From positions 53,247 through 117,246 of the forward strand of contig JAVEZR010000001.1 of assembly GCA_034002865.1 (NCBI GenBank): a stretch of DNA of 64,000 nt, in the 5' to 3' direction. Below the pieces are notes generated by a model. It was not told the DNA's origin. It did not search any database and saw nothing but the letters and a program-made list of their open reading frames with translations. A program made the translations under genes and the position numbers. The DNA comes from Candidatus Dojkabacteria bacterium. Lineage in GTDB: Bacteria > Patescibacteriota > Dojkabacteria > SC72. This document shows, in pieces, positions 14,422 to 58,623 of this stretch. Each line of letters starts with the position of its first letter. The first letter of the stretch is position 1.

Positions 14422-16017
14422 ATGAAGGGAACCTTTAGAAAAGATTTACAGATAGCTACTGTAAAATCTCAATCTGTATGGAACAAATTTAAAGTACATA
14501 CTCTTTTACAAAACCCTTCTCAAAAACAACCCTCTATTAATGCATATCTTGGTGCAAGATATAGTAGATCTTCTGACTCTATCCTTGATATTGCCAAGGA
14601 GATTATAAACTCAAATACAGATGCTGCAGACAGATTAGAAAAAATCTTTCATGGGTATGGCCATAAGTCTGTAGGAGATATGGCAGATCTTTTTGTATGT
14701 ATAGAGAATATCCCTATGTTTACTGCAATGAAGATCTTCTACCTTAACTCTGTTATCTCTGGTCAAGAGAGATCTACTAGATATCAGAACTTTGAGAGTC
14801 CAGAATTTATTAAAATACCAAAAGAGCTATGTAAAGATAGTGAGATTAGGAAAGAGTACGACCGTATTATGCTTAAACAGATGTCTGATTACAGAAAACT
14901 ACTTAAGAAGACACGTATATTACTTAAAGAACAGTTTAAAATTAATAAAGAGAATCCTGCAGAGGTATCAGCATGGAAATCTAGATCATTTGATGTAGCA
15001 AGATACTTACTACCGTATGGATTACGAACTAGTTTAGCAGCAGTAATGTCTGCTAGGAATTGGTCTGAATTAATATCTTACTTTAATGCTAATGATAGTG
15101 TGGTAGATAATGAAGTTGCTAACTTACTAATGAACTTACTTGGGGAATCAGATTTAGAGATACGAGGATATATACGAGAGGCAGATGGTTTGATTAAGCA
15201 TACAGATGCAAACTGTTGTAGAAGGAATTCAACTAAGGAAGTTTTACAGTACCTAGAACCTATAATCTCTAAACAGAAAGAATTGAAAGATCTAGGTTGT
15301 GAACAGGATACATGCACTATCTCTTACAATGTAGACCCTGTAGAGGACTTAATTACTCACTATGAACTTCTTTTAAATCCTCTAGGTAGTAAGAAGGAGT
15401 TAGAGTTTGATGAGAAAGACTCAATTTCAATTGGAGAGAAGATATTTGATAACCATAACCATCATAACTTAATGGGAAATATTGGTCAGTCAGGGGCTAT
15501 AAAGATAGAGGGTATGGCTACATTAGGAACATTAAAGGATTTAAATAGGCATAGGAGTTTAGAGAGATATATACCTCTCTTTCATGATCATTTAAATATT
15601 GATAATGAATTAAAGAGGGATGAGAAAGATTGTTTCTCCCTCTGCAACTATCTTGATATAAAAGAGTTGGGGAAATTAAAGGATGAATATGAACAGTGTT
15701 TAGTAGAAACATATAAAATGATAAAGAATTGGAGAAGTGTCTCTAAGCAGTTTATGTCAGAGGAGGTCTCTACTGAATATACAAAATATCTCTTACCTCA
15801 TGCTCACTTCACTAAATACAGTTTCTATGGCTCTATAGATGATTTACAGTATACAATCAATCTTAGGGTTAGAAGAGGTGGACATATTGCATATAGAGTT
15901 TTAGTGTATAAATGGCTAGAATTATTAAATGAGAAAGATTCAATCTGGAAATCATTACTTAAAAGTATTCAGAAACCTGATTATAAATCTAAAGAGCAGT
16001 TTGTAGATAGAAGTTAA
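14422..16017 (+). CDS. thyX: Tandem-duplicated flavin-dependent thymidylate synthase (ThyX-like pseudo-dimer)
   Basis: 531 aa, about twice the length of ThyX. Half 1 (HGYGHKSV...NSVISGQERSTRY, ARYLLPYGLRTSLAAVMSARNWSEL) and half 2 (NIGQSGAI...LNRHRSLERY, YLLPHAHFTKYSFYGSIDDLQYTINLRVRRG) both align to the ThyX core (GHESxxEH...RHRxxSxxxxSxRY; R..LP.n..t....t.N.R.l..f...R). The gene sits between glyA and dcd. Confidence 0.6.
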   Translation: MKGTFRKDLQIATVKSQSVWNKFKVHTLLQNPSQKQPSINAYLGARYSRSSDSILDIAKEIINSNTDAADRLEKIFHGYGHKSVGDMADLFVCIENIPMFTAMKIFYLNSVISGQERSTRYQNFESPEFIKIPKELCKDSEIRKEYDRIMLKQMSDYRKLLKKTRILLKEQFKINKENPAEVSAWKSRSFDVARYLLPYGLRTSLAAVMSARNWSELISYFNANDSVVDNEVANLLMNLLGESDLEIRGYIREADGLIKHTDANCCRRNSTKEVLQYLEPIISKQKELKDLGCEQDTCTISYNVDPVEDLITHYELLLNPLGSKKELEFDEKDSISIGEKIFDNHNHHNLMGNIGQSGAIKIEGMATLGTLKDLNRHRSLERYIPLFHDHLNIDNELKRDEKDCFSLCNYLDIKELGKLKDEYEQCLVETYKMIKNWRSVSKQFMSEEVSTEYTKYLLPHAHFTKYSFYGSIDDLQYTINLRVRRGGHIAYRVLVYKWLELLNEKDSIWKSLLKSIQKPDYKSKEQFVDRS

Positions 16018-17985: not shown

Positions 17986-19152
17986 ATGATATATTTTGAT
18001 ATGGATTTAAATAGTGCCCGGAGCAATGCTCCTGTAAATACAGCTAATGATATTCTCTCTGAGATTGTAGAGCTGCAAAACAAGCTTAGTACTTCTCCTG
18101 CACCAATAGAGCTTAAAGAAGATGTAATGAGAACCATTCAGAGATTGGAGAGAATGGCAAAATGGGGTAACTATAGCTCAGAGTTTGAGAGTGTAGATAA
18201 GTATGTAGACTGGGTAACAAGAATACCTTGGGGAGTTATCTCAGAGGATAACTTGAATATTGAGAATGCGAAAGAGCTAATGGACTCTACACACTACGGT
18301 ATGGATGTTGTAAAGAATTTGATACTAGATTACTTAGCAGTAATGCAGATACAGAAGTTAACAGGTAGGAACACTCCTCAGAGTAGTAACTCAGATATGG
18401 CTGGACTAAGGGGTTCATCTGCTAATGCTCCTGTACTTCTTTTCTTAGGCCTACAGGGTGTAGGTAAAACCTCTATTGCAAAATCCATAGCTCAGTCAAT
18501 GGGAAGGAAGTTCGCTAGAGTCTCACTTGGAGCTATTGGAGATGTAAGAACATTAAGAGGTTCACCAAGGCATGAGATTGATTCCGAGCCAGGACAGATA
18601 ATTAAGGCACTAGTTAGGACAGGTACAATGAATCCAGTAATTTTAATTGATGAGATAGAGAAAGCAAGTGGTAATGCTGGTTTACTTAATGATGTAATGG
18701 CAGCTCTACTTGAGATATTAGATTCAGAGCAGAACTCTACTTTTATAGACCACTATGTTGATCATCCTGTAGATTTATCTCAAGTATTTTTCATATGTAC
18801 AGCAAATAACCTAGGCGGGTTATCTGCAGCACTGTTAGATAGGGTGGAGATAATTAGGTTTACTAGTTACTCTGATGAAGAGAAAGGTGTAATAGCTAAG
18901 TCATATATACTACCTAAGGTTTTAAAAAATATGGGACTTACAGATCAACATATTCAAATTACACAGGAGGTATGGCCACTACTAATTAGGCCTGTTGGTT
19001 TTGATGCAGGTATAAGGCAGTTAGAAAGAAATATTGCTACATTAGCTAGAAGTGCTGCTAGACAGATAGTAGGGGGGCATCCTTTACCAATAGTTGTAAC
19101 ACCTGAGAATGTTAAAGAGTATGTACTTCCAGATCAAGGCCCTCTAAGTTAA
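17986..19152 (+). CDS. Lon-like AAA+ ATPase module with no N-terminal LAN domain and no C-terminal protease domain
   Basis: Matches the Lon coiled-coil linker and AAA+ core: YVDWVTRIPWG, HYGMDVVKNLILDYLAV, Walker A GLQGVGKTSIAKSIA, Walker B VILIDEIEK, sensor LLDRVEIIRF. The ORF stops right after the AAA+ small domain. Confidence 0.75.
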   Translation: MIYFDMDLNSARSNAPVNTANDILSEIVELQNKLSTSPAPIELKEDVMRTIQRLERMAKWGNYSSEFESVDKYVDWVTRIPWGVISEDNLNIENAKELMDSTHYGMDVVKNLILDYLAVMQIQKLTGRNTPQSSNSDMAGLRGSSANAPVLLFLGLQGVGKTSIAKSIAQSMGRKFARVSLGAIGDVRTLRGSPRHEIDSEPGQIIKALVRTGTMNPVILIDEIEKASGNAGLLNDVMAALLEILDSEQNSTFIDHYVDHPVDLSQVFFICTANNLGGLSAALLDRVEIIRFTSYSDEEKGVIAKSYILPKVLKNMGLTDQHIQITQEVWPLLIRPVGFDAGIRQLERNIATLARSAARQIVGGHPLPIVVTPENVKEYVLPDQGPLS

Positions 19153-19376
19153 TATCCCTTAAAAGGGTTTGTTAATTGTAAAGCCTTCATTACCCTTGAT
19201 AGATTCTCATCCTTTATTGCCCTGGAGATGTCAGTTTTTACTCTACTTTTTTCTTCATACTTCTCTAAAAATAGAAGATCATTATTAACCTTCTCTTGAG
19301 ATAGCTGTTTTATATCCACAGCTTCTGTTACAAGATACTTCTTTAATTCTTCGTTACTGTTTTGATTTGTCATCAT
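19149..19376 (-). CDS. Small hypothetical protein (75 aa) that is the last gene of the VirB4 operon
   Basis: Charged, probably helical ORF that overlaps the 3' end of the VirB4-like gene (19354-19376), consistent with operon coupling. No motif. Confidence 0.3.
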   Translation of the reverse strand: MMTNQNSNEELKKYLVTEAVDIKQLSQEKVNNDLLFLEKYEEKSRVKTDISRAIKDENLSRVMKALQLTNPFKGY

Positions 19377-21759
19377 TCTCTATTATACCTTGTGGAGTTA
19401 TATGAGTTCTCCCTTTATTTAATTCCTCTCTCTGTTTACGTACCTGCCCCGGTATTGTGTTTTCTTCTACCATATCTACAAAGGATTTCTGAGACTCAAA
19501 CTTTTTAGGATTAAGAATCTCTTCCTGTTCCCTTAGTCTCTTTTCTAACTCCTCCTGATATTTGTTTCTCTCAGATTGAATCTTTTGTATATCTTCCTGC
19601 CTTCTCTCGACTGCTCTTTCAATTAACTCACTCTGTTTTGTAGAATCTGCAGAGATATTCTTCATAGGCTGTTGAGCTGCCGGTGGGTCATATATCTGAG
19701 CTAACTCTTGTATAGATCTTGTATCAGTCATACCTTTCTGACTCTTTCTAGCCTCTATTTCTCTTGGGTCTGAGGTAATTAGTTCATGCTCTGATTGGCT
19801 AGAGAGAACCTGTATTCCAACATGGTTAGCTCCTGCAAAGAAGAGACCTTGTCCTCTGTCACAGTTTAGTAAGAAGTTTCTTTCTCCGTCAGAGAGATTA
19901 AATACCTGTTGTAATTTTTCTACAGCAGATGGACTCTGTTTCATTAATATCTGTATTGAAGAGTTTGAGATTATTGCCCTTCCCATATCATTGTTCATAA
20001 AGTCGGCGACATCTTGTGTAATAGTTGTTAATCCTAAGTAGTACTTTCTTGCTCTTTTAGCTAAAGAGTACATAAATTTTGCAGAATCTTCTCTTTGCAT
20101 CATATACCAAGCTTCATCAACAATTAACTGTCTCCTTCTTTGATCCTTACGTATCTTTGTCCATATGAAATCTAACATTAGATACATTGAGAGAGGCTTT
20201 AGTTCTTCTTGTAGATCTCTAACACTAAATACTGTAAATGGATTATTAATTTCAAAGTTACTAGCCTCATTAAATACTCCAGCCGCACTTCCCATTATAT
20301 ATTTCTCCATTCTTTTAGAGAGCTCGTGTGCTTCTGTTTCTGCCATTCCCTTCAACACCTTATACAGATCCTCTAGAAGTGGAGCAGGGCGTTTCTGTGT
20401 TGCAGGGTCAAATGTAATACCTTTTTCTCTGTACGTTAATATCAGTGCTCTATCTAATATTGAGGTTTCTACATTTGTAAGTCCTTCAAACATTACTTTA
20501 AAGAATCCTTGCAGTGCTAGTAGTTTCATTCTTAACTCGTCATCTCCTTCCTCTGTCACCCCTGAGAGTTCAAATGGATTCATCTTATGACCTTTGTCTT
20601 GTGAGAAAGAAATGTATGCTCCATTAACTGCTTTTGAGAGATCTTCATACTCTCGCTCTGGATCAATAATTATTATATGTGTACCAAGCATTAAGCTTCT
20701 TACGGCTTCTAATTTTACAAAGTAACTTTTACCTGCACCTGACTTAGCAAAGACAACGGCATTTGCATTCTCTAATTCAAATCTGTCAAATATTACTAAG
20801 CTCTTGTTATGCATATTAATCCCGTACATAATTCCATGGTCCATTGTTAACTCTGATGTTACAAATGGGAATGTTGTAGCAAGAGAGGTAGTATCCATAT
20901 TCCTAGTAATGTACAGTTTGTCCAATCCTAATGGCTGAGTGCTGATAAAGGCAGGCTCTTGTTGAAGTGTTGCAGGTTTTGCTATTACATTCATAGCAGC
21001 AAGCGTAGAGGTAACATTCCTAGAGTATTTCTCAAGTAAATCTTTTGAAGGTCCATATATTGTTACGTACATAGCAAAGTGGAAGAACTTCTCAGTACCC
21101 TCTGCTATGGAGTCTTGTAGCTGTTGAGCATCAGAGAGAGCTACCTTTAAAGATGGGTCTACAACTTTCCTATCTTCCATCTGGGAGTAAAGGGTAGCTT
21201 CCATCTCACCTATCTTTTTCTTAAGTTTCTCTAATATGATTTTAGAATCTACAGGGTAGTAAAAGGTACTTATTCTAAGTGAGTGCTCAAAGTTGATAAT
21301 GGGGGAGAGCCAATTAGGTCCTACAAATCTGGGATATCCACTAACAAAAAAGGTTCTAGAGTAGTAATCACCCATTTGTAATGTATTAAAATCTACCTCT
21401 ACATCTATTGGAGCAATGATATCTTGAGTACTTAAGCCTTCGAATTTACCAACAGGAGCTTCAGCTTTTATTTCAACCTTTGGAGGTTTTATACCTATGG
21501 TTGTTTTAAAGTTATCGATTATTTTTGCAAAAGGACTCCTTTTATCCTCTTCCTTAGTATCATTAAATCTATCTTTTTTATCTACTTGCTCTTTAGATGT
21601 TTTAATATTCTCTAAATCTTTTCTTAGATCACCTTGAAAAGAAGCATATTTGTTCTCGGTAAGCTTGTTTTTACGCTCATCGAGCATCTGCATAGTCTTC
21701 GATGTTAAGTTGTTTTTACTATCTTTGTTATTCATCCTCTCCTTTTGGTAATTCTTCAT
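19354..21759 (-). CDS. virB4: VirB4/TrbE/CagE-family type IV secretion ATPase with K/E-rich N- and C-terminal extensions
   Basis: N-domain motif YSRTFFVSGYPRFVGPNWLSPII. Walker A VVFAKSGAGKSYFVK. IIIDPEREYEDL (VirB4 D-P-x-G/E-Y). Walker B LIVDEAWYMM. GLTTITQDVADF. No TM helices. ~100 aa of K/E/D-rich N-terminus and ~150 aa of charged C-terminus lie outside the ATPase core. Confidence 0.85.
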   Translation of the reverse strand: MKNYQKERMNNKDSKNNLTSKTMQMLDERKNKLTENKYASFQGDLRKDLENIKTSKEQVDKKDRFNDTKEEDKRSPFAKIIDNFKTTIGIKPPKVEIKAEAPVGKFEGLSTQDIIAPIDVEVDFNTLQMGDYYSRTFFVSGYPRFVGPNWLSPIINFEHSLRISTFYYPVDSKIILEKLKKKIGEMEATLYSQMEDRKVVDPSLKVALSDAQQLQDSIAEGTEKFFHFAMYVTIYGPSKDLLEKYSRNVTSTLAAMNVIAKPATLQQEPAFISTQPLGLDKLYITRNMDTTSLATTFPFVTSELTMDHGIMYGINMHNKSLVIFDRFELENANAVVFAKSGAGKSYFVKLEAVRSLMLGTHIIIIDPEREYEDLSKAVNGAYISFSQDKGHKMNPFELSGVTEEGDDELRMKLLALQGFFKVMFEGLTNVETSILDRALILTYREKGITFDPATQKRPAPLLEDLYKVLKGMAETEAHELSKRMEKYIMGSAAGVFNEASNFEINNPFTVFSVRDLQEELKPLSMYLMLDFIWTKIRKDQRRRQLIVDEAWYMMQREDSAKFMYSLAKRARKYYLGLTTITQDVADFMNNDMGRAIISNSSIQILMKQSPSAVEKLQQVFNLSDGERNFLLNCDRGQGLFFAGANHVGIQVLSSQSEHELITSDPREIEARKSQKGMTDTRSIQELAQIYDPPAAQQPMKNISADSTKQSELIERAVERRQEDIQKIQSERNKYQEELEKRLREQEEILNPKKFESQKSFVDMVEENTIPGQVRKQREELNKGRTHITPQGIIENDDKSKQ

Positions 21760-22384
21760 CTGGGTTATATATTGTATAAAACTCTGTTATTAACTCTTTA
21801 TTTGTAAGTTGATGTCCAAAGAGTCCCATTCTTCCTAACTGCTTTAGTAGATGATCTCTTTTTGGATAGAGGAAGATTTTAGATTTTTCTAGTAGTTGAT
21901 CCTGTTTCATTGCTAAGCTTCTCTCTATTTCTTCTCTTGTTTGTTTCGATTTTAAAAGAGATGAACCGGGAATCTCACCTGCAGGATTAAAGGGAATTAC
22001 TATTAAGAATGTTTTATCTAATACATCATTTTGAACTATTAAGTTCTGTATAAACTCGGTATATATATTTAACTGTCTTTTTAAACCCTCAGACATGGCT
22101 TCATTCTCCTGCTCTTCAAGGTAATCCACATAGTTAGAGATATCTATTCTCCTTGTTCTAATTAATATTTGGATATGGAAATTAAGGGAGTTTAGTAGTC
22201 CTGCAAAAGCATATATCTTACTATCCTGCTCATACTCTGCTAGTAAGTCAAAGTTAATAGCGGAGGTTTGAAGTACAAGAGCTACAGTACCAGTTTTTGT
22301 AATAACTAAATCATCAACTATCTCTCTTACTTCGAGATGATCCTGTGTAGATGAAGTTGTTCTTGCTCTTGCATTTATATCCAT
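21728..22384 (-). CDS. Hypothetical soluble protein (218 aa), translationally coupled to the flanking membrane-protein and VirB4 genes
   Basis: The stop overlaps the VirB4 start by 32 nt, and the start overlaps the stop of the upstream gene (ATGA). No TM and no recognisable motif. Confidence 0.5.
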   Translation of the reverse strand: MDINARARTTSSTQDHLEVREIVDDLVITKTGTVALVLQTSAINFDLLAEYEQDSKIYAFAGLLNSLNFHIQILIRTRRIDISNYVDYLEEQENEAMSEGLKRQLNIYTEFIQNLIVQNDVLDKTFLIVIPFNPAGEIPGSSLLKSKQTREEIERSLAMKQDQLLEKSKIFLYPKRDHLLKQLGRMGLFGHQLTNKELITEFYTIYNPDEELPKGEDE

Positions 22385-23220
22385 TACTTCAGTGTTATCT
22401 TCAAAGGTAATTTACTCTGATTAGATGATACAACTATTCTTAACTTTGGTGCTCCTGAGATTGGGCCTTCAAACTCTACTGTATATATTCCTTCTGGATA
22501 TATTTTATTAGTTAAGAAGTATCCATTAGGGCCAGTCTTATTAGCATACAGGATCTTACCATTAGAATCCTTAAGAAAGGCATTTATACCAGAGAGAGGT
22601 TGACTGTCTTTAGTACATAGCCAGATATTAATATTACCAGGTAGTTGATCTACACTTTTTATTGGAAATTGGAAGTTAGAGATATTTTCCTCTGAAATAG
22701 TGAGATACTCCTCTGTAGGAGTAATTACCTCTTCTGTTTCTTGCACTACCTGTGGTGTAGTCATAACTTCCTGTGTACTATCTCCTGCTAAGATATCATC
22801 TCCTGGATTCTCTTCAAAGATGTCTACCCTCTGTTTTTGTGTAATATCTGAAGCTCCTATTACCTTCTTCTTGCTTTCATCTACAGCATTAACCTGAGGT
22901 TTAATCCTTTGCTCTTTCATAGTTTGGTTTAACCATACTCTCTGTGTAGGCTTATTTATTGCAGAGAAGAAATTTATAATGGCTTTATCTGCAGGTAAAT
23001 CATTTATTGGTACAAGTGCTAAGAAAGCCCCTATACCTGAGAGTATTGCAAAGAGAGGTATACCAACAATGCCAGGTATATCTCCTCCGATAGAGAAGTA
23101 GAGGAAGATAGAGCCTGTACCTATACCTAAGGCTAAATATGCGAACTCTTTTAATGTAAACCTTGTGAAGAGTTTAAACTCGATATCTAATACATTTTGT
23201 GGAATAGGATGTTGTCTCAT
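22384..23220 (-). CDS. PrgI/VirB3-like membrane hairpin protein fused to a C-terminal extracytoplasmic beta-sandwich domain (carboxypeptidase-regulatory-like)
   Basis: The N-terminus (IPQNVLDIEFKLFTRFTLKEFAYLALGIGTGSIFLYF, then a second TM) resembles PrgI/TcpE/VirB3-family proteins encoded next to VirB4. The C-terminus (KDSNGKILYANKTGPNGYFLTNKIYPEGIYTVEFEGP) looks like a CarboxypepD_reg/Ig-like fold. Confidence 0.45.
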   Translation of the reverse strand: MRQHPIPQNVLDIEFKLFTRFTLKEFAYLALGIGTGSIFLYFSIGGDIPGIVGIPLFAILSGIGAFLALVPINDLPADKAIINFFSAINKPTQRVWLNQTMKEQRIKPQVNAVDESKKKVIGASDITQKQRVDIFEENPGDDILAGDSTQEVMTTPQVVQETEEVITPTEEYLTISEENISNFQFPIKSVDQLPGNINIWLCTKDSQPLSGINAFLKDSNGKILYANKTGPNGYFLTNKIYPEGIYTVEFEGPISGAPKLRIVVSSNQSKLPLKITLK

Positions 23221-23279
23221 TATTCAGGAATAGTTTACCAGAATTATCAATAATAGTGGAGGGTAATACTTCTTAAAAG

Positions 23280-24107
23280 ATGTTGTACCTGCTATCATAT
23301 CCTGTAATGTACAGAAAAGAGCTAAAAGAAATAATAGAGGAGTTAGTACTGTTTAAATCTAATATGGGGCTAAAACTCTCTATTAAAAAGCTTCAATATA
23401 TATGGGGTAAGGGAATTATAAAGGGGCTAGATGAGAGTATATTAAATACTCTGGAAAGAGGAACAAAAGAAGAGAGTTCTAATATTACACAGAAGAAAAT
23501 AGAGATTGCAAATGAAAGAGTAAAATCTTTATTGGTATCTAACTGGGTTAGATTTGTAGGTATATCTGGTTCTGTAGCTGCAGGCTTTACTAAAGAGGAT
23601 GATGATATAGATTTATTTATCGTTGTTAGAGATGGTAGCGCATGGATATATAGGGGGATATTAACAGTAAGAAATATATTTAATCATATAGCTAGGACAA
23701 GTAGAGATGGGAATACTGTTAAGGATCTGTTCTGTATAAATTTCATAGTTGAAGAGAGAGGCTTAGAGCTTGAATCTGATATATTTAATTTCCATGAGCT
23801 TATGTATCTTATACCTCTTTACAATGAGAGATATCTTAATCATATTTACAGAAAGAATAGATGGTTACTTACTAAGTATTTCATCAACAAAGAATTAGTA
23901 GTAAGTAGGGAGAGAGAGCTTAAGAGAGTAAATATCTTCTTAAGAATTATTAATTGGCTTGCATATATAGCCCAAATCCTCTTTATGATACTTTCAGGTC
24001 ATAGGCCAGAGATAGATAGGTTACTTAGTAATTATAAAGAGGGTAGGATAGAGTTCTTTCCTAAGGAGTATAAAAGCGAGGTAATGAAAAGTGTGATTAA
24101 GAAATAG
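23280..24107 (+). CDS. Nucleotidyltransferase-fold protein (Pol-beta/LicD-like GS...DDDID motif)
   Basis: GISGSVAAGFTKEDDDIDLFIVV fits the minimal nucleotidyltransferase pattern hG[GS]x9-13DhDh. 275 aa, with a helical C-terminal region. Confidence 0.4.
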   Translation: MLYLLSYPVMYRKELKEIIEELVLFKSNMGLKLSIKKLQYIWGKGIIKGLDESILNTLERGTKEESSNITQKKIEIANERVKSLLVSNWVRFVGISGSVAAGFTKEDDDIDLFIVVRDGSAWIYRGILTVRNIFNHIARTSRDGNTVKDLFCINFIVEERGLELESDIFNFHELMYLIPLYNERYLNHIYRKNRWLLTKYFINKELVVSRERELKRVNIFLRIINWLAYIAQILFMILSGHRPEIDRLLSNYKEGRIEFFPKEYKSEVMKSVIKK

Positions 24108-27783: not shown

Positions 27784-28335
27784 CTATTGAATCTCTTTTA
27801 TGTTTAATTCGAAGTCTTCTTCAAATCTAACATCTGAAAAACTCTCTATGTAAAGATATATTACATATGTTTCTTTAGGTGCAAGAGTAATCTTTTGAGT
27901 TAGGGGATTACCATTAGATTCCTGTAATCTATATCTCTGTTCTCCTATTATTATCCCAATATCAGAGTTTGTACGTATGGATGTTCCTCCATATATTTCT
28001 AAATTAACACTCTCCTCCTTATTATTCACTATCTCTATTATAGGTTTAGAGTAGCTATCTGCTTCTCTTTTTACTAACTTAGTTTTATATGTATATATAT
28101 CTTCATTACTATCTATTCTTTCATTTAGAAAGATTAGATGAGATCCCCCTATGATATTAACTTTTAATCCTGAAGAGTTTGTTACTCCTAGAACATCCAA
28201 ATCTTTTAATTTTTTTGTAATTGGTTGTAGATTAACAACAGTTATAGCGGGGATGATGAAGAGTAGGGCTAGTAACCCTAATGCTATTGGTTCTAATACT
28301 AAGGCTAATGTTTTTTTAACTTTGTTCTCTTTCAT
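27784..28335 (-). CDS. Hypothetical membrane-anchored protein
   Basis: 183 aa with an N-terminal TM and a beta-rich remainder. Confidence 0.4.
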   Translation of the reverse strand: MKENKVKKTLALVLEPIALGLLALLFIIPAITVVNLQPITKKLKDLDVLGVTNSSGLKVNIIGGSHLIFLNERIDSNEDIYTYKTKLVKREADSYSKPIIEIVNNKEESVNLEIYGGTSIRTNSDIGIIIGEQRYRLQESNGNPLTQKITLAPKETYVIYLYIESFSDVRFEEDFELNIKEIQ

Positions 28336-28337
28336 AT

Positions 28338-28886
28338 TTAGTAGTATCTCTTATTATCAGGATATACATTATTACTTTCAATTTCAAATGTTTTTACAGC
28401 TCCTACTCCACAGAGGAATGCAAAGGAACCTGCAAGAATTCCAACCCATGTATATGTACTATCTTGTAGTACATTTATTACAACAATGGATGATGCTACC
28501 CAAAGGAATGCACACCAAATGAATATCTTAAGAAAGGTTGTATCATCTTTTGTAATCCACTGTAAGATATTAAACTTTGTTACCTTTACAATGGTCTTAG
28601 GATTACCAACGGTTGATTGAAATATTGCTGTTTTAAATATGAAATATGCAGTAGGTATTGCTAAGAAAAGGAACATTGAGAGATCAGAGAAAGAGTTTAC
28701 AAAAAGAGTAATCGCTTTATCTTCAAAATATATTTGTGTTGAAAATATACCATTAAGCTCATTACCAACTTCAATGGTAAGGCCATATATGGCACTTGTT
28801 AGGAATATTCCTAATACTTTTCCCGCAATCATTAGTATTGCAGGAAACAGAGAGTTTTTAAGCGCTCTTTTTAGCAGTTTTGACAT
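28338..28886 (-). CDS. Hypothetical polytopic membrane protein (~4 TM)
   Basis: 182 aa with four hydrophobic segments. It overlaps the end of rpsT by ~29 nt; the internal Met at MIAGKVLG could be the true start. Confidence 0.4.
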   Translation of the reverse strand: MSKLLKRALKNSLFPAILMIAGKVLGIFLTSAIYGLTIEVGNELNGIFSTQIYFEDKAITLFVNSFSDLSMFLFLAIPTAYFIFKTAIFQSTVGNPKTIVKVTKFNILQWITKDDTTFLKIFIWCAFLWVASSIVVINVLQDSTYTWVGILAGSFAFLCGVGAVKTFEIESNNVYPDNKRYY

Positions 28887-29666: not shown

Positions 29667-30051
29667 AGGATTGTTTTTAATAACCGTAGTTACTGTACTC
29701 TCCCTTGTAGTAGGGCTATTTGTATTTAGAGTTTCAGGCTCTAGTAGCTCTCTTTCTATAGAGGGTTGTGATCCTTACAATGTAAAGATAGAGAAGGGGG
29801 AGAAAGAGAACTCTGTGGTAATATCTTGGAAGAGTAAGGCAGAGTGCTCTGCATATGTTATATATGGTGGTGAGATGAAAGATTTGCATTTAATAGGGAT
29901 TGATTTAGAGAATGAGATAAAGGATAGGGATCATAGGGTAGTTTTAAACTCCCTTATTTCTTCTAAGATATACTTCTTCTCTATAGTTTCGGATAGTACT
30001 ACCTATGGTAAAGATGGTTTACCAATATCATTCTCTATTTCTTCTCTCTAA
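29653..30051 (+). CDS. Small secreted protein with an FN3/purple-acid-phosphatase-N-like beta-sandwich domain
   Basis: 132 aa with a signal peptide. The domain VVISWKSKAECSAYVIYGG...HRVVLNSLISSKIYFFSIVSDSTTYGKDG is paralogous to the repeated domains in the 50505-52127 product. Confidence 0.4.
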   Translation: MMKNRGLFLITVVTVLSLVVGLFVFRVSGSSSSLSIEGCDPYNVKIEKGEKENSVVISWKSKAECSAYVIYGGEMKDLHLIGIDLENEIKDRDHRVVLNSLISSKIYFFSIVSDSTTYGKDGLPISFSISSL

Positions 30052-31771
30052 CAATTTTCTCTTCAAAATATTTCTTTGGATTAGTATATTTATACTTAGT
30101 CATCTCTGCATCTTTATATATATCTGAGTTAAGGATAATTTGAGATAGTTTTACCCCTTCAGGTCTTGTATATACAGCCCATGCTGTTGCGAAGAGTACT
30201 ATTCCTATTGCCAATCTTACAAAGAGGTTGTCTAATATTCCAGTAGATGGTGTAGTTACAGGTACTGTTGGATTATCACAGTCTTGAGCAACAACTATTG
30301 AAGCTTGAGATCTTAATGTTGAAGGATCAGATGGTATCTGTACAGGATTTACAATTACTTCATTTAGGTTTTCTCCAGTAAGTGCATTACTATCTGCTTT
30401 TGCTCTGAATACAATAGTTAGCTGTCCACTAGCAACTACACTCCAAGGAGATGATTGCTGCCATACTATCTCTTGTGTAGACCCTATATTTGATACAGTA
30501 GTTAAGGAACCATCTGTAGCCGCAGTTCCATTTACAACTGTACTTTCTACTACATATGTGAATCCAAGAGGTAGTTTGTCTTTTATAGAGGTTATTTCTT
30601 GAGTTATATCACTGTTGTTCTTAATAGAGATAGTGAATGTTGCAACATTATTACTCTCAACTCTCTCTATACATGATGGAGATGCTATCTTAGATGTGGA
30701 AAAGTTAGAGTGACTCTCTTCTTCCTCTTCTTCCTCATCTGTTTCCTCTACCACTGGTACTTCCTGGGAAAGAAATTCTACCTCAGTACTTACTACTCCA
30801 ATACTTGTATCATCTACAAATACCTCTGCTGTAATAGGTAGGGGGCCTTCATGATTGTCTAGGATAGCGAATGATTGATCACCTACGAAGTTAGTTGCAT
30901 CGTACAGGTTAGCTTTTGTAATTGTGACTGTACCTTTAGCACTTTCAATGTTTAGCCCTCCCTCTGTTGTTAATGTTTGGAACTTTGTTCCAAATGAGAA
31001 ACTTACTTTTACATTCTCACTACTTAACTGCCCAACAGAGATTGTAATTTGAGAGATCTTTGTTCTACCATCACTCTGTCTTTCAGTAGTTGCAGTAAGA
31101 GCATTCGCACCTGTACTACCGCTCACATTAATATCTATAACTCTTCGACATATTATCGAATTAATGGAATCCCCTTTACTATCTGTTGCAGTAGCTAGAA
31201 TATCAAGAGAGTTTACATCTTTGAAGTCAGTAACCTTTTTGTATATCTTTTTACCCTCTATTTTGTCCGGTGTATTAGATTGTGTATTTATTTTAAAGGT
31301 GTAGTTACTGTAATTCTCATTATCAAAAGTTGCCTCTATGTTAACTTCATCTTCGGGATTAATCTTACCTGTAATTAACTTTCCATCCTGATCTGTAAGT
31401 ATCATTTCCTGACATCTAGCGTCAGAAATACTTCGTATGTTACAACTTTTAAACCTATCTGTTGCAGTACTACTTTTGATTACATATTCGGAGAGTAGTT
31501 GTGTATCACAGGCTATACTACATGCTTGGTCCGAGGGTACACTCTTTGAGCTAAAAAGAAATGCTTTCTTAGGATCTCCACAATCATTAACAACTGCAGG
31601 GTCTATCATGTAACAACCACAGGTAATCTGATTTCCTTTTTGCTCCTCCTGTACGGTATCTGCAATTGCGTAAAAATATATTACTGCGCCTATTAAAGCA
31701 ACTATTAATATACCACCGACAATGAGTAAGACTCTTAAAGCTCTTTTTGTATTTCTACTCTGTGTCCTCAT
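30035..31771 (-). CDS. Large surface protein: N-terminal TM, Cys-rich domain, Ig-like repeats, poly-Glu linker, C-terminal TM
   Basis: 578 aa. N-terminal helix LRVLLIVGGILIVALIGAVIYFYAI. Multiple Cys in the first 120 aa. An EETDEEEEEEES linker. C-terminal hydrophobic segment LFVRLAIGIVLFATAWAVY. Confidence 0.5.
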   Translation of the reverse strand: MRTQSRNTKRALRVLLIVGGILIVALIGAVIYFYAIADTVQEEQKGNQITCGCYMIDPAVVNDCGDPKKAFLFSSKSVPSDQACSIACDTQLLSEYVIKSSTATDRFKSCNIRSISDARCQEMILTDQDGKLITGKINPEDEVNIEATFDNENYSNYTFKINTQSNTPDKIEGKKIYKKVTDFKDVNSLDILATATDSKGDSINSIICRRVIDINVSGSTGANALTATTERQSDGRTKISQITISVGQLSSENVKVSFSFGTKFQTLTTEGGLNIESAKGTVTITKANLYDATNFVGDQSFAILDNHEGPLPITAEVFVDDTSIGVVSTEVEFLSQEVPVVEETDEEEEEEESHSNFSTSKIASPSCIERVESNNVATFTISIKNNSDITQEITSIKDKLPLGFTYVVESTVVNGTAATDGSLTTVSNIGSTQEIVWQQSSPWSVVASGQLTIVFRAKADSNALTGENLNEVIVNPVQIPSDPSTLRSQASIVVAQDCDNPTVPVTTPSTGILDNLFVRLAIGIVLFATAWAVYTRPEGVKLSQIILNSDIYKDAEMTKYKYTNPKKYFEEKIVREKK

Positions 31772-37467: not shown

Positions 37468-39324
37468 TTAGGAATTATCGTCATCCTCTTTCTTTGCAGC
37501 GTCAATCTCTGTTAGAAGTATTGAAAGGTCTGCTTCTGGCTCTGGAATACTGGTAGCTTCATTTTGAGTCACACTTTCTATCGGCTTAGGTGCTTGAAAA
37601 GATTCTGTTACTAAGTTTTCAACATCGCTACTATTACTGTACGGGTCGATATTCCCAGGGTTATTATCTTTCGGTGTAGATGGAGGGAGAGTAGGATTAA
37701 TGGTTTTCGACTCTTGAGAGTCATCTTTCCATACAGCAAAAATTATCATTGGAGTGAATATCGCAAGTACTACTAACGCAATACCTCCTGCAATTATTAA
37801 TGCAACCCTTTTGTTAATGTAGTAGCCGAAGATATTAAAACTATCAGGGTCTACATCTTCACCATCTGAGATGGAAAAGGTCCAACTCTTTTCTACAGCC
37901 TTCTCTGAGCTATCTGAGAATGAAATATCAACTTTATGTACACCCTGTTCTAAAATTTCTTCAGGTAGGTATATTACAGTATATTCATATTCAGATATCT
38001 TGTTGATTTTTATCTCAGATGTAATATCACTGTCATCAAGTAATACTTTTATACTCTCTTGGTTAACAGTAGAGTCTCTGGAAGCTATTAATGATGCTTT
38101 TATAGTGGGTTTGTTGTTCTGTACAGTATCAGAGCTTGTTGGGGAGAAGTTGATAACTTGGGGGGTATCTAGTACTACAGAATCATCAGGCTCTTTACCC
38201 TCTATTTGTCCTTTGGCTATTACAATCTCTTGTGAGACATCCATTCCAATGGCTTCAGGTTTCTGATTGTCTATAGCTCTAAGAATTACTCTGTACGTAC
38301 CATCTTTAAATTGTGAAGTATCTATGTCATATGATGATCTGTTATACTCAATTTCTTTATCTATACTTATCCAACTCTTTTCATTTGTAGGGTTAGAGGA
38401 AAGATACATTTCAAACCTAACAATGTGATTATCATCTACAGCATCCCATGCTACTTTAAGAGTTTTTTGATCAGAGATAACGGTTCTTGTTAGTGGTTCT
38501 ATTATCTTTACAGTAGGTATATCATTCTCTTTAGGACTTACACTTACAACCCATGATTGAGAGGCAAGATGCTTACTGTATCCATCATGAATGAAGATAT
38601 TGGCCAGGTAACTGGCAGCGTCTGTTGTAGAGCCCCTAAACTTTATTGTAAGTTTTCCATTACCTCCATCTTCTATTACAGTTGCTTTTAACCAATCAGT
38701 ACCAGGAGTAAATGAGTATGAGTAGTTTATTGTATCTCCATCTATGTCTTCTGCTACTAATGTGTATTCATATGTATCCCCTGTCTTTATACTTTGAGAT
38801 GGTATGGAGTTTTTAGGAAGAGTCACAAATATTGGTTTAGAGTTATCAGCTATGGCTCTTACTCCAGACACATCATATGGACTACTGACTACACATTCAT
38901 ATGTTTTCTTGTTTAAATCAAGCATTAAGCCCTTAATCTCATATGCTTTTGCAGCAGTAGGGGTGAAATTGAATGACTCTGATACTCTTTTGGGTACATC
39001 TTCACCATATGTTTTGCTTAGTAGAGGGTTGTTGTTCTCATCAATAACGGAGAGAGCTTTTATACCTAAAGATGTAGAGAGTGCATCTATCTGTACTCTA
39101 AAAGTGCTATCTACTTCCAGAGAGTATGGGTTTACATTTGGGAAGGAGATTACACAGGGGTTAACATCACTTACCTCTATATCATCAAAGGCCCTGTTTC
39201 TAATATCAAAACTCTCATCTTGTAAAAGACCGACAACAAAGACTGGTATTGAGAGGAGAAGGAGAAAGGTTAGAAACAAACTTCTTCCTTTTCTACTTTT
39301 TCTTGGGGCAAATTTTGACTTCAT
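37468..39324 (-). CDS. Large surface protein with Ig-like beta-sandwich repeats, a C-terminal TM anchor and a Pro-rich cytoplasmic tail
   Basis: 618 aa. N-terminal signal or TM. Repetitive beta-rich domains. TM (LIIAGGIALVVLAIFTPMIIFAVW) about 110 aa from the C-terminus. Confidence 0.5.
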   Translation of the reverse strand: MKSKFAPRKSRKGRSLFLTFLLLLSIPVFVVGLLQDESFDIRNRAFDDIEVSDVNPCVISFPNVNPYSLEVDSTFRVQIDALSTSLGIKALSVIDENNNPLLSKTYGEDVPKRVSESFNFTPTAAKAYEIKGLMLDLNKKTYECVVSSPYDVSGVRAIADNSKPIFVTLPKNSIPSQSIKTGDTYEYTLVAEDIDGDTINYSYSFTPGTDWLKATVIEDGGNGKLTIKFRGSTTDAASYLANIFIHDGYSKHLASQSWVVSVSPKENDIPTVKIIEPLTRTVISDQKTLKVAWDAVDDNHIVRFEMYLSSNPTNEKSWISIDKEIEYNRSSYDIDTSQFKDGTYRVILRAIDNQKPEAIGMDVSQEIVIAKGQIEGKEPDDSVVLDTPQVINFSPTSSDTVQNNKPTIKASLIASRDSTVNQESIKVLLDDSDITSEIKINKISEYEYTVIYLPEEILEQGVHKVDISFSDSSEKAVEKSWTFSISDGEDVDPDSFNIFGYYINKRVALIIAGGIALVVLAIFTPMIIFAVWKDDSQESKTINPTLPPSTPKDNNPGNIDPYSNSSDVENLVTESFQAPKPIESVTQNEATSIPEPEADLSILLTEIDAAKKEDDDNS

Positions 39325-40705: not shown

Positions 40706-41506
40706 TTAGAATCTTTCTGCTACTACAACTAATCTTTTTGTTCCAACTCCAAGTGGCCAACAAGTCATCATTGTTAATGTTTCCTTGTCACTCTGGCTCT
40801 TTAGTATGGAAAAATCATCAGGAGAAACTATTCTTTTATTCCTAACAATATATCTTAATTCCTCTCCTCCCTTATTTATACTCACACTATCTCCTATATC
40901 TACCCCCTCTAATCTTGTAAATATCGTCTCTGGTAAGTTGGAGTGCCTACTAAAGAATTTCTCTACAGCACTATGTCCATAGATAAAGGAGTTACCACCA
41001 TCTCCTGGTAGAGGTGTTCCCTTAAAGTGAGCCAATCCGAACTTAAGGTATTGGTCATATATTTTTTCATCAGAGCTTTCTACATTAGGAGTAATACGTA
41101 TATCCTTAATATCTATCTTCTCGATAGTGATATACATATTCTCTGAGTAATCTTTATTTACTATGATTGGTTTACTAGTTTTTGTTTGGGGATCATATGT
41201 AAAAATTCCTTGATACTGTAACCCTTCTGCACTATCCGAGAGATTTGCAAAGTAGCTTTTACCTGGATCATAGTAGGCAAATTCATCTGCAATATACTGT
41301 CTGTATGACTCTGGGAGAGGATCTTTCATAATCCTCTGTTTAAGCTCTTGGAATTCTCCCTGTACGTATGACCTAGTGAGAGGGAATACCTGACTTATGA
41401 TTACTACTATTCCTACCACTCCTAGTATCCAAGCTATAGTTTTTTTCATCCTTTTTACTTTCCTCTCATCTATAGAGGATATTTCTATGTTTTCATCCAT
41501 CTTCAT
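40706..41506 (-). CDS. Sortase (transpeptidase)
   Basis: N-terminal TM. Catalytic His (FIYGHS). TLxTC motif (TLTMMTCWP). Conserved Arg (KRLVVVAER). Confidence 0.8.
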   Translation of the reverse strand: MKMDENIEISSIDERKVKRMKKTIAWILGVVGIVVIISQVFPLTRSYVQGEFQELKQRIMKDPLPESYRQYIADEFAYYDPGKSYFANLSDSAEGLQYQGIFTYDPQTKTSKPIIVNKDYSENMYITIEKIDIKDIRITPNVESSDEKIYDQYLKFGLAHFKGTPLPGDGGNSFIYGHSAVEKFFSRHSNLPETIFTRLEGVDIGDSVSINKGGEELRYIVRNKRIVSPDDFSILKSQSDKETLTMMTCWPLGVGTKRLVVVAERF

Positions 41507-50142: not shown

Positions 50143-50463
50143 ATGGAAACAATCCCCCCTTTATATTGGATGATAATTATTGCAATAGGAGTAGGCTTTA
50201 TCTGCTTCGTCCTATATGAATTTGCAATGCTAATTAAAGAGTCTAAGAATGCTGTAGCTGATTCAAGGAAGATTATTCAAGAAGCTGAGAAAACAGTGGA
50301 TATGGCTAATAAAATTGTAACAGAGGCAACAGAGATTGTAGGAGTTGTAAAAGGTACAGTCTATGAATTAAATAGTGCAATAATAAGGCCAGTGAGAAAG
50401 ATTTCATCATTGGTATCTGTAGCATCCGCATTTACTGAGGGTTTAACCTCTAAAAGAAAGTAG
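50143..50463 (+). CDS. Small single-pass membrane protein with a coiled-coil tail (first gene of the envelope operon)
   Basis: 106 aa. TM LYWMIIIAIGVGFICFVLYEFAML, then a heptad-like helical region. Confidence 0.4.
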   Translation: METIPPLYWMIIIAIGVGFICFVLYEFAMLIKESKNAVADSRKIIQEAEKTVDMANKIVTEATEIVGVVKGTVYELNSAIIRPVRKISSLVSVASAFTEGLTSKRK

Positions 50464-50504
50464 AAATCGTTGCTATTGCGTTTCTCTCTTTGTATGATGA
50501 ATAG

Positions 50505-52127: not shown

Positions 52128-52130
52128 GGT

Positions 52131-53504: not shown

Positions 53505-53526
53505 ATTAATTTATTAACAAACAACA

Positions 53527-55011: not shown

Positions 55012-55022
55012 TCCAATTCTTT

Positions 55023-57632: not shown

Positions 57633-57644
57633 AACTAAGATATA

Positions 57645-58616
57645 ATGAAAATACAGGGAAGTAGAAAGAATGCCTTCTATATTCTAATAGCCTTTATAAT
57701 TATCATCTCAGTAGTACTTCTAATAGTGCTAAACTCCCTTTATGCTAAACAGTATCCAGAGGAACCAATTAAGATGAAGAACCTTGGTAAAAGTACTCAA
57801 ACAATTGATATATCTTCCTTAAGTAAAAAGATTGAACAGGAAGATATCCCTGTATATTTTGTACACCCAAGATTACATATCTCAAATGTAGAGGAGATGA
57901 TTGATAAAATGGGTTTGTCATTAAAAAGAGAAGATATAGTTAAAGATAGCTATATCCAATGGAGTGATGGGGAAAATAGCTTCACATATGACTCTGTACA
58001 AGACACAGTATCGTTTCAATTAACAAGAAGGATATCATTAGAAAGAGGGGTAGAAGCTTTTAAGAATGTATTTCAAAAGTACCTAGGTATCCAACACGAT
58101 TATGTTTTAATTAAAGAGAGAAAGAACAACGATGGAGGAGTAACTTACTACGCTTCTCGTACCTTAGATGGTATTCCTGTTCAGTTTGGTGCTAACTATG
58201 AATACTCTGAGATTTTAAAATTTAACAAGGAGGGAGTTTTAGAATCAGGACAGTTACTATTAGCAGAGTTTGAGAAGTATGATCTATATGTTCCAACCAT
58301 TACCAATGATGAGTTAAAAGCGTATATAAATGCAAAAGATTATCCTAAAGAGCACTATATAGATAGCTCTGTATTAACAGAGACATTAGATCTTAACTAT
58401 CTTGATGAAGCCTGGGGAGAAATAGAGGGCACATTGGAGGAGTGTAAGGCTCAAGATTTTGAAAATATCTTTCTTTACAAAAATAGTAATCAAGGATACC
58501 TTTTACCCGTAGTAAAGATATCTGCTAATTGTAATGTTACTAGTAAAGCCACTGTATATACCGTACCCGTAACTTTCTATGTTAATGGAGTTAGCCCCGA
58601 TTATGTGACTTTGTAA
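57645..58616 (+). CDS. Hypothetical membrane-anchored extracytoplasmic protein
   Basis: 323 aa with an N-terminal TM (FYILIAFIIIISVVLLIVL). No motif. Confidence 0.4.
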   Translation: MKIQGSRKNAFYILIAFIIIISVVLLIVLNSLYAKQYPEEPIKMKNLGKSTQTIDISSLSKKIEQEDIPVYFVHPRLHISNVEEMIDKMGLSLKREDIVKDSYIQWSDGENSFTYDSVQDTVSFQLTRRISLERGVEAFKNVFQKYLGIQHDYVLIKERKNNDGGVTYYASRTLDGIPVQFGANYEYSEILKFNKEGVLESGQLLLAEFEKYDLYVPTITNDELKAYINAKDYPKEHYIDSSVLTETLDLNYLDEAWGEIEGTLEECKAQDFENIFLYKNSNQGYLLPVVKISANCNVTSKATVYTVPVTFYVNGVSPDYVTL

Positions 58617-58623
58617 GCATCTT

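Follow-up and report, generated by a model that had tools for sequence, protein, structure and literature searches.

This study analyzed a 64-kb stretch of Candidatus Dojkabacteria bacterium DNA (contig JAVEZR010000001.1, positions 53,247 to 117,246; hereafter the window, whose own numbering is used throughout), centering on four overlapping open reading frames (ORFs), all on the minus strand, that span positions 19149-23220. The results indicate that this locus is very probably the cytoplasmic-membrane core of a chromosomal, MPF_FATA-derived type IV secretion system (T4SS) of the Patescibacteria. A sequence-only reading of the same DNA had described a four-gene operon here, and the ORF list agrees with it in coordinates and in the presence of products of 278, 218, 801, and 75 aa. 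The first gene (22384..23220) encodes a PrgI/VirB3-like membrane anchor of 278 aa, identified through Pfam PrgI, its orthologues, and an AlphaFold2 (AF2) model. The second (21728..22384) encodes a soluble 218-aa protein of the TrsD/TraD type ("TraC-like", PF26593) with a fold resembling the VirB4 N-terminal domain. The third (19354..21759) encodes a VirB4-family ATPase, 801 aa as the longest ORF, identified through NF045971, P-loop_TraG, and the structure 4ag5; the fourth (19149..19376) is a conserved small gene, found in an orthologue survey, whose 75-aa product carries a C-terminal NPF[KR]G.

The VirB4 ATPase and its conserved core

The sequence-only reading had called the third product a bona fide VirB4, and this call was fully borne out. 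All the quoted motifs are present (YSRTFFVSGYPRFVGPNWL at residues 133-151, GAGKSY at 341-346, DPEREY at 366-371, and LIVDEAWYMM at 545-554), and the NCBIfam model NF045971 (conju_CD1110, the CD1110-family VirB4-like conjugal transfer ATPase) matched at 391.3 bits against a curated cutoff of 325. The solved VirB4 C-terminal domain 4ag5 matched at 9e-49, and Pfam P-loop_TraG matched at 1.3e-29 (103.5 bits versus 25.8). Walker A (AKSGAGKS, 338-345) and Walker B (LIVDE, 545-549) lie within segments that are 84-93% conserved, and residues G341, G343, K344, D548, and E549 are invariant in the alignment. Judged from its sequence, the VirB4 ATPase is genuine, and its identity is far beyond chance.

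The distribution of the locus was scanned with one genome per species, and the best 80 loci, almost all from Dojkabacteria/WS6, were kept. VirB4 in these loci is 61-96% identical to the window VirB4, and the best 80 genome matches are all from Patescibacteria or from unclassified metagenome-assembled genomes. The best match outside the Patescibacteria, from Pontibacillus, is 37% identical.

The alignments divide the protein into three segments. The conserved core (residues 109-680; 19720..21435) comprises the distal N-terminal domain and the RecA-like ATPase, and across approximately 75 Dojkabacteria species its residues 121-660 keep 80-93% identity to the window sequence. The core aligns with PrgJ 220-774, TraE 45-652, and Pontibacillus VirB4 29-617, and homology to every conjugative VirB4 compared is limited to residues ~109-680. 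The N-terminal segment (residues 1-108; 21436..21759) is rich in Lys, Glu, and Asn and poorly conserved (25-41%), and alignments with conjugative VirB4s begin only at approximately residue 109. The charged C-terminal tail (residues 681-801; 19357..19719), conserved at 44-58%, is specific to Dojkabacteria. Both tails are absent from the VirB4s of other Patescibacteria, such as the 628-aa VirB4 of locus L084. The VirB4 chain does not hold a complete N-terminal domain: the PF03135 match covers positions 123-196 of 204 at 15.8 bits, under the cutoff of 21.

The 218-aa protein belongs to the TrsD family

The 218-aa product had been described in the sequence-only reading as lacking any recognizable family. 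This description proved incorrect, as the protein can be placed by TrsD/TraD (NF041427), by PF26593, and by homology to TraD of Staphylococcus aureus. Both the identical protein P0001 and the majority of the 120 homologues among the matches listed carry a PF26593 annotation; the scan of the window returned no Pfam match for the protein because PF26593 was not in the Pfam copy scanned. NF041427 matched with an E-value of 1.4e-7 and 31.5 bits, far under the subfamily cutoff of 200, so the protein is a distant member and does not belong to the staphylococcal subfamily. A profile built from 145 diverse family representatives matched the S. aureus pSK41-type TraD at 4e-12 (profile positions 10-206 against TraD 32-219) and the 274-aa protein directly upstream of the Pontibacillus VirB4 at 7e-48. 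A single-sequence phmmer search with the 218-aa protein returned no matches. The family comprises 1546 representatives (50% clustering, E<=1e-3), and its members are 56-95% identical among approximately 80 Dojkabacteria species.

The AF2 model of TrsD had a predicted local distance difference test (pLDDT) score of 87 and a predicted template modeling (pTM) score of 0.76. A Foldseek search with this model returned TrwK/VirB4 chains of R388 as all of its top 14 matches, after which the E-values jumped a hundred-fold; R388 VirB4 (TrwK) was the sole strong match among solved structures.

Outside the Dojkabacteria, most TrsD-like proteins (among P0241-P0390 and at L084 8001-9197) are 300-715 aa long and carry very long disordered C-terminal tails rich in Gln, Asn, Ser, Pro, and Thr. 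Several of the long-tailed proteins inspected end in a conserved ...LPPI[AS]EI[TE]. The Dojkabacteria TrsD has no such tail, and 108 disordered residues are found at the N-terminus of VirB4 instead.

TrsD as a proposed detached part of VirB4

Several lines of evidence point to a VirB4 that is divided between two genes. In NCBIfam NF045975, the model of the VirB4 from Mollicutes integrative and conjugative elements (ICEs), TrsD matches positions 100-216 at 7.3e-8 and the window VirB4 matches positions 234-893; the two proteins cover adjacent parts of the model and thus tile one long VirB4. A VirB4 profile aligned TrwK 645-735 to window VirB4 543-633, an offset of approximately +102. This offset, together with the core start at residue 109, implies that the first ~210 TrwK residues have no counterpart in the window VirB4 core, and the missing stretch is about equal in size to the TrsD domain (~205 aa). 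PrgJ of pCF10 likewise carries approximately 200 extra N-terminal residues.

The division is matched by natural fusions. The 787-aa protein P0323 has a TrsD domain (7-200) joined directly to a VirB4 core (211-775), and the N-terminal segment of the window VirB4 is missing from it. This fusion occurs on at least three contigs of uncultured Patescibacterium from different samples (for example, L085 6001-8364 and L086 877-3240), and an assembly error is unlikely because it recurs on contigs of different samples. The P0323 gene adjoins dnaN/dnaA and is followed by a gene for an 890-aa M23 peptidase.

On the basis of sequence comparison and the structural model, TrsD appears to supply the N-terminal ~200 residues that the short VirB4 lacks. 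From the fold, the tiling, and the natural fusions we infer that TrsD corresponds to the N-proximal portion of the VirB4 N-terminal domain, split off as a separate protein, and that the site of the split falls within a disordered linker, where its position shifts; VirB4 residues 1-108 are read as the remnant of this linker between the two modules. A remote homology of TrsD to the VirB4 N-terminus has already been noted in literature cited in passages of Quinonero-Coronel et al. 2025 (PMC12102498). A different relationship, in which TrsD would be a sequence paralogue of the part of the N-terminal domain that VirB4 retains, received no support from sequence: TrsD profiles did not match the N-terminal domain kept in the short VirB4s (Dojkabacteria, TraE, and Pontibacillus), and no similarity was detectable in the profile searches.

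The PrgI/VirB3-like anchor and its beta-sandwich

The first product had been proposed to be PrgI/VirB3-like, and a check against PF12666 supports this proposal. The Pfam PrgI model matched residues 5-87 of the window protein at 3.8e-5 and 24.6 bits, under the gathering score of 27, and it matched all 51 of the 51 aligned orthologues, with a best E-value of 1.1e-9. PF12666 is also precomputed for most orthologues, one of which is named "PrgI family protein" by NCBI. As in PrgI/VirB3, a two-transmembrane (TM) hairpin is encoded upstream of virB4, but the protein is not small, having a 170-aa C-terminal extension. A Dojkabacteria PrgI profile gave no significant match to pSK41 TraC, pCF10 PrgI, or the Pontibacillus 116-aa protein, short TM hairpins being poor targets. 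Among the top 50 Foldseek matches of the whole 278-aa model in the Protein Data Bank (PDB), no VirB3 (TrwM) chain was found and all matched the sandwich, short TM hairpins being poor queries as well.

The AF2 model of the 278-aa protein (mean pLDDT 72) comprises three parts. The PrgI domain proper (residues 1-106; 22903..23220) consists of an N-terminal amphipathic helix, a TM hairpin, and two post-TM helices (8-19, 23-45, 50-69, 77-89, and 93-106), with a pLDDT of approximately 90 in the hairpin and 62-82% identity across Dojkabacteria. A disordered acidic linker (residues 107-169; 22714..22902; pLDDT <50 at 112-139 and 144-169) is poorly conserved and variable in length, reaching approximately 250 aa in orthologues. 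The C-terminal part (residues 170-278; 22387..22713) is a beta-sandwich of the CnaB/transthyretin/CarboxypepD_reg type with at least seven strands and a pLDDT of 80-92.

The CarboxypepD_reg-like fold had been recognized from sequence, and both AF2 and Foldseek confirm it: the best PDB match was CnaB2 (8bdw, 7.6e-5), followed by the BcpA pilin, SdrD B domains, carboxypeptidase D, and transthyretins. Weak Pfam matches to SdrD_B and CarboxypepD_reg were obtained for 11 and 6 of the 51 orthologues, respectively. The sequence-only reading had further placed the sandwich outside the cytoplasm, and here the topology contradicts it. Hydropathy and AF2 both give exactly two TM helices, and the mean Lys+Arg count in 70 PrgI orthologues is 3.9 for the 25-residue N-terminal tail and 6.1 for the 40 residues that follow the second TM helix, against 0.6 for the 6-residue loop. 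By the positive-inside rule, and with two TM helices, both termini are therefore predicted to be cytoplasmic, with the C-terminal domain on the same side as the N-terminus. The sandwich thus most likely resides in the cytoplasm, attached at the point to which VirB4 is fused in other systems. This placement agrees with the cytoplasmic contact between VirB3 and VirB4. VirB3-VirB4 fusions exist in some conjugative systems, according to passages of PMC12102498, and fit a cytoplasmic PrgI C-terminus.

The reading had also called the presence of the sandwich unusual, which was an overstatement. The fusion is kept throughout Dojkabacteria, and the same PrgI-CarboxypepD_reg arrangement occurs in other Patescibacteria lineages, as in a 464-aa protein of L084 (PF12666 and PF13620) and a 273-aa protein of L085.

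Gene junctions and the 75-aa gene

Translational coupling of the operon genes had been proposed and is supported by their overlapping starts and stops, with corrections at two junctions. The overlap at 22384, described previously as ATGA, is real, but the junction reads TAATG (CTG AAG TAATG G) and is 1 nt long. The 32-nt overlap given for 21728-21759 holds only for the longest ORF of virB4, as a better start at ATG 21735 shortens it. This ATG is preceded by an AAGGAG Shine-Dalgarno sequence and leaves an overlap of 8 nt with the 218-aa gene, ATGAATAA. The same 8-nt overlap results from the longest-ORF calls in several orthologous loci, including L004, L007, L008, L016, and L017. Because of the AAGGAG sequence and the 8-nt overlap also seen in orthologues, VirB4 probably starts at M9 (ATG 21735), giving a product of 793 aa.

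The virB4 gene shares 23 nt with the 75-aa ORF, and a TTAA double stop is common to the 75-aa ORF and the convergent gene for a Lon-like AAA+ protein. At the other end, 59 nt separate the start of the 278-aa gene from a divergent nucleotidyltransferase gene. A promoter and terminator scan of 18900-23500 identified no terminator-like site and fewer promoter-like sites than in shuffled sequences; the scan says little beyond fitting one transcription unit.

The 75-aa ORF is a real gene. Of 76 loci, 73 carry it (63 recognized by BLAST and 10 by ORF search), always in the same overlapping position; it was not recovered in the other 3. The family shares a central YLVTxAVD...DLxxLxKAE and an invariant C-terminal ALxLxNPF[KR]G-x-stop. 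The protein matched no Pfam or NCBIfam model and has no TM segment, and comparison of the family with PrgF, PrgM, and PrgL of pCF10 yielded nothing convincing. Its identification as PrgF was ruled out, since PrgF is a hydrophobic membrane protein. L084 and L085 have no such gene, which suggests that it is confined to Dojkabacteria.

Chromosomal setting and inheritance

The locus lies among housekeeping genes, and database proteins identical or nearly identical to those of the window are annotated as Candidatus Dojkabacteria/WS6. The window encodes MurJ, GroES/EL, FolD, SHMT, ThyX, dCTP deaminase (DCD), SufS, RecF, LepA, S20, HolA, AlaRS, DnaJ, NusA, IF-2, S15, PNPase, and UvrD, and its G+C content (GC) is even throughout (0.33-0.39). 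The order S20, 182-aa membrane protein, 183-aa protein, LepA, RecF, nucleotidyltransferase, PrgI, TrsD, VirB4, 75-aa protein, Lon-like protein, SufS, DCD, ThyX, SHMT, FolD, and ABC is kept in approximately 80 species. Because this housekeeping neighborhood is the same in approximately 80 Dojkabacteria species, the operon is considered stable, vertically inherited, and not mobile.

Genes for conjugation are missing from this setting. The sequence-only reading had reported that no VirD4, relaxase, VirB11, or integrase occurs in the 64 kb, and Pfam scans of ORFs of at least 90 aa, together with the reading of three intergenic gaps, likewise revealed no type IV coupling protein (T4CP)/VirD4, relaxase, VirB11-type ATPase, or integrase in the window. 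Its conclusion that the locus does not look like a conjugative element also stands, given the absence of relaxase, T4CP, and integrase from the window, the fixed synteny, and the uniform GC. No relaxase or T4CP was found in the 10-kb flanks of the approximately 80 orthologous loci compared with the window proteins, and the window holds no tRNA gene.

These observations bear on whether the locus could be a decayed remnant of an integrated Gram-positive MPF_FATA conjugative element, with virB3-trsD-virB4 left and no present function. The gene order is identical to the pSK41-type traC-traD-traE, VirB4 matches a conjugative family best, and no other recognizable T4SS genes lie within 10 kb, all as such a remnant would have it. 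Against this, the VirB4 core and TrsD retain 80-93% and 56-95% identity, respectively, over approximately 80 species, and the intact frames and Walker motifs point to strong purifying selection. The fixed chromosomal position among housekeeping genes, the uniform base composition, and the essentiality of a homologous system in Southlakia epibionticum (PMC10633639) also argue against decay, and we regard a functionless remnant as extremely unlikely.

Points against a secretion-system core

The assignment of the locus to the core of a working secretion system must be weighed against several findings, and we list them together here. No homologue of VirB6, VirB8, the VirB2-like pilin, or VirB1 was recognized by sequence in the window, and a complete secretion channel in this organism is thus putative. 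The equivalence of TrsD with TrwK 1-210 rests on offset arithmetic and whole-chain structure matches. In sequence comparisons, hhalign of the Dojkabacteria TrsD alignment against the Dojkabacteria VirB4 alignment gave no signal, nor did a 146-sequence TrsD profile against VirB4, and the TrsD profile against all PDB sequences returned chance matches alone (E>1). Folds of the CnaB/SdrD-B type usually belong to extracellular proteins on the surface of Gram-positive bacteria, a setting that fits poorly with a cytoplasmic placement of the PrgI sandwich.

The lack of channel genes also raises the alternative of a stand-alone membrane ATPase module that has no dedicated T4SS channel and serves, for example, in the extraction or insertion of envelope proteins or pilins. 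Within the window, no match was found to the VirB2-like pilin (PF18895), PF04956, or VirB6, and in no Dojkabacteria locus does another recognizable T4SS gene lie within 10 kb of virB4. Such a module would fit the failure to recognize VirB6, VirB8, or VirB2 homologues in the 64 kb, and the Dojkabacteria-specific additions, namely the N- and C-terminal tails of VirB4 and the NPF[KR]G protein, might be signs of a platform turned to a new use. Passages of PMC12102498 further report VirB6 as scarce or undetectable in some classes. Fast-evolving membrane parts are nevertheless expected to be missed in sequence searches, and the polytopic, M23/TM, and bitopic proteins encoded at 53527-58616 mirror genes found directly after virB4 in another lineage. 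VirB4 is not known to act outside T4SS-type machines, which also counts against this alternative, and we consider it quite unlikely.

A candidate second cluster

Candidate membrane and cell-wall partners of the operon are encoded 31 kb from it in the same window, and for this reason the label "minimal" given to the operon in the sequence-only reading is not supported. Positions 50143-59829 on the plus strand hold a compact cluster of seven envelope genes, most of them without a family match above threshold. Three of its members are candidates on the basis of their architecture: a 494-aa polytopic membrane protein with eight or nine TM segments (53527-55011), an 869-aa protein whose TM cluster (~588-663) precedes a C-terminal, HLHLE-containing M23-like peptidase (55023-57632), and a 323-aa bitopic protein (57645-58616), all on the plus strand. 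The 494-aa family was found in Dojkabacteria only and has no Pfam match. The 869-aa protein matched Pfam M23 at a sub-threshold E-value of 0.003, and the 323-aa protein matched the FliF/YscJ ring-building motif (TIGR00206) at 7e-5, below the family cutoff.

The resemblance lies in gene order and domain layout. In L085/L086, the fused VirB4 gene is directly followed by genes for an 890-aa protein (TM cluster at ~578-651 and a C-terminal HLHYE M23 domain) and for a membrane protein of 332 aa whose TM segment is N-terminal, an order that echoes PrgJ-PrgK-PrgL of pCF10. The 869-aa and 323-aa pair of the window mirrors these two. The 869-aa and 890-aa proteins share their domain order: approximately 525-580 aa of soluble N-terminus, then a TM cluster, and at the C-terminus an M23 domain containing HLH[LY]E. 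The cluster proteins showed no significant similarity to T4SS parts in comparisons with Pfam, NCBIfam, pCF10, pSK41, Pontibacillus, and the L084/L085 neighbors. On this architectural resemblance only, the cluster is a candidate for the half of the T4SS that resides in the membrane and cell wall.

The other members of the cluster are a 106-aa protein with one TM segment, a 540-aa secreted protein combining fn3 and purple-acid-phosphatase-N domains (2.5e-11, the only clear match to Pfam in the cluster), a 457-aa Cys-rich secreted protein, and, as the last, a 401-aa amidase/SH3 protein whose matches to SH3_3 (5.8e-5) and Amidase_2 (0.0028) are both under gathering.

Neighboring genes

The Lon-like protein that converges on the operon (17986-19152, plus strand; 388 aa) has AAA+ and Lon lid domains and no protease domain. 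The protein encoded on the other side of the operon (23280-24107, plus strand; 275 aa) has a nucleotidyltransferase fold and a C-terminal TM helix. Each of these genes adjoins the operon in most, but not all, Dojkabacteria loci. The ThyX homologue (14422-16017, plus strand) is 531 aa long, and its Thy1 domain covers residues 41-221 only; this long form, with approximately 300 extra residues, is kept across Dojkabacteria.

Approximately 5 kb from the operon, positions 27784-28886 on the minus strand encode a 182-aa protein with four to five TM segments and a 183-aa bitopic, beta-rich protein, both without a family. In nearly all Dojkabacteria loci of sufficient extent, S20 and LepA flank this pair. 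Two surface proteins are encoded on the minus strand at 30035-31771 (578 aa, with a weak sub-threshold DUF11 match) and 37468-39324 (618 aa, Big_7). Both have an N-terminal signal anchor and a C-terminal TM segment, and a sortase gene lies nearby (listed with 40706-41506, minus strand). By these sequence features, they are probably sortase-handled, adhesin-like proteins of the epibiont surface.

Comparison with known systems

The closest counterparts are the T4SSs of other Patescibacteria. Passages of Quinonero-Coronel et al. 2025 (PMC12102498) describe VirB3, TrsD, and VirB4 genes that are close together, consecutive in the supplementary-table examples (from other classes). They also report a monophyletic Patescibacteria clade of VirB4 within MPF_FATA, count the Dojkabacteria genomes of the dataset as VirB4-positive, find relaxases rare, and conclude that this system was recruited into a non-conjugative role. 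As far as these passages go, the window locus is like those of the rest of the phylum in its consecutive VirB3(PrgI)-TrsD-VirB4 genes, its MPF_FATA type, its housekeeping chromosomal site, and the absence of an adjacent relaxase or T4CP. By the same passages it differs in that its virB4 has no adjoining VirB2-like pilin array, VirB6, or hydrolase, which are frequent there, though not universal.

Some conjugative systems share elements of this gene arrangement. In pSK41/pGO1-type plasmids of S. aureus, traC (135 aa, VirB3-like), traD (227 aa), and traE (670 aa, VirB4) have the same order and also overlap. Unlike the window, such a plasmid carries a relaxase, a T4CP (TraK), topoisomerase III, and a CHAP hydrolase, and it conjugates. 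TraC of pSK41 lacks the C-terminal beta-sandwich, and TraE lacks the terminal tails. In PrgI-PrgJ of pCF10 and TrwM-TrwK of R388, as in the window, a PrgI/VirB3 hairpin gene directly precedes the gene for the VirB4 ATPase. Both of these systems are conjugative, and in PrgJ and TrwK the N-terminal region is part of one VirB4 chain, whereas it is a separate gene in the window. The Mollicutes ICE VirB4 (NF045975, the Mbov_0397 family) and P0323 similarly have a TrsD-like region fused to the VirB4 core that follows it, in contrast to the split form in the window, and the Mollicutes VirB4 belongs to a mobile ICE, unlike the window locus.

The closest VirB4 cluster outside the Patescibacteria is L082 (4468-14021), located beside flagellar genes on an 898-kb megaplasmid of Pontibacillus sp. 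ALD_SL1 that is typed as non-mobilizable. It comprises genes for an Mbov_0395-type pilin-like protein, a 779-aa polytopic protein, a 116-aa VirB3-like protein, a 274-aa TrsD-like protein, VirB4, and a 1050-aa M23 peptidase. This cluster may be another non-conjugative MPF_FATA system, in a Firmicute.

Proposed function

We propose that TrsD would dock onto both the VirB4 core and the PrgI helices that lie in the cytoplasm, and that a full-length VirB4-VirB3 unit would thereby be rebuilt at the membrane. The gene overlaps and coupled translation would keep PrgI, TrsD, and VirB4 roughly equimolar. The break point would lie in a disordered stretch that takes the form of a VirB4 N-terminal tail in Dojkabacteria and a long Gln/Asn/Pro-rich TrsD C-terminal tail in other lineages, and that is missing from the fusions. 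A VirB4 hexamer may power assembly and the handling of substrate or pilin in a non-conjugative system, for which a host-interaction function, essential in Southlakia epibionticum, is the most likely role. The PrgI sandwich on its flexible linker and the NPF[KR]G protein would most likely be cytoplasmic accessory or docking elements of this ATPase platform.

The role of Patescibacteria T4SSs is described as not known in PMC12857230 and as "completely unknown" in PMC11665869, and Wang et al. 2023 (PMC10633639) found the T4SS to be essential for the epibiotic growth of S. epibionticum ML1. The foremost hypothesis is that effectors or a pilus are exported towards the host. A real alternative is that DNA or nucleotides are imported, and the window does not discriminate between the two.

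Under the uptake alternative the operon would be a competence-like machine, comparable to the ComB system of H. pylori or the Ced system of archaea, and its VirB4 module would bring DNA or nucleotides from the host or the environment into a cell that is unable to make nucleotides. The absence of a nearby relaxase or T4CP would suit such a machine, as would a weak, sub-threshold match of VirB4 to CedB (1.7e-17, 63 bits against a cutoff of 700) and to CedD. The CedB match reflects the shared ATPase core, however, and the CD1110-type conjugative VirB4 matches far more strongly (391 bits). RecF is encoded 0.9 kb away, but an oppositely oriented gene lies between recF and the operon, and recF is a usual housekeeping gene of the origin region. 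The T4SS is named as a candidate route of nucleotide acquisition in PMC11665869, and passages of PMC12102498 place the T4SS of class ABY1 beside comF, recG, and radA. In S. epibionticum, by contrast, competence is reported to proceed through ComEC and type IV pili, and T4SS essentiality is independent of ComEC. No sign of a DNA-binding component was found in the window. Taken together, we judge DNA uptake to be an unlikely function of the operon.

A more speculative proposal, to which we attach only low probability, concerns the accessory parts of the secretion-system core. The PrgI sandwich, which is found in several Patescibacteria lineages, might be a platform for docking substrates or adaptors at the cytoplasmic mouth of the T4SS, in a position likened to the place of VirB4 in the VirB3-VirB4 fusions of other systems, and in Dojkabacteria it might act with the NPF[KR]G protein. 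If so, the two would replace the missing coupling protein.

Significance

The module and its non-conjugative reading have already been published (PMC12102498, PMC10633639, and PMC12857230), and the locus adds no new kind of system. The main text of PMC12102498 does not mention a CarboxypepD_reg/CnaB-like domain on PrgI. The NPF[KR]G gene, the roaming linker, and the VirB4 tails were not met in passages of that paper, in which these terms were not targeted. The PrgI sandwich, the NPF[KR]G protein, and the roaming linker are possibly new, small details.

Should the sandwich and the NPF[KR]G protein form a docking platform, they would offer, as pull-down bait, a first experimental handle on what the essential Patescibacteria T4SS transports. 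The analysis sharpens the parts list of this system to include TrsD as a detached module, a roaming break point, a conserved and probably cytoplasmic sandwich, and a Dojkabacteria NPF[KR]G protein. These parts are concrete targets for interaction and depletion work in cultivable relatives, among which the T4SS is essential in the one species tested.

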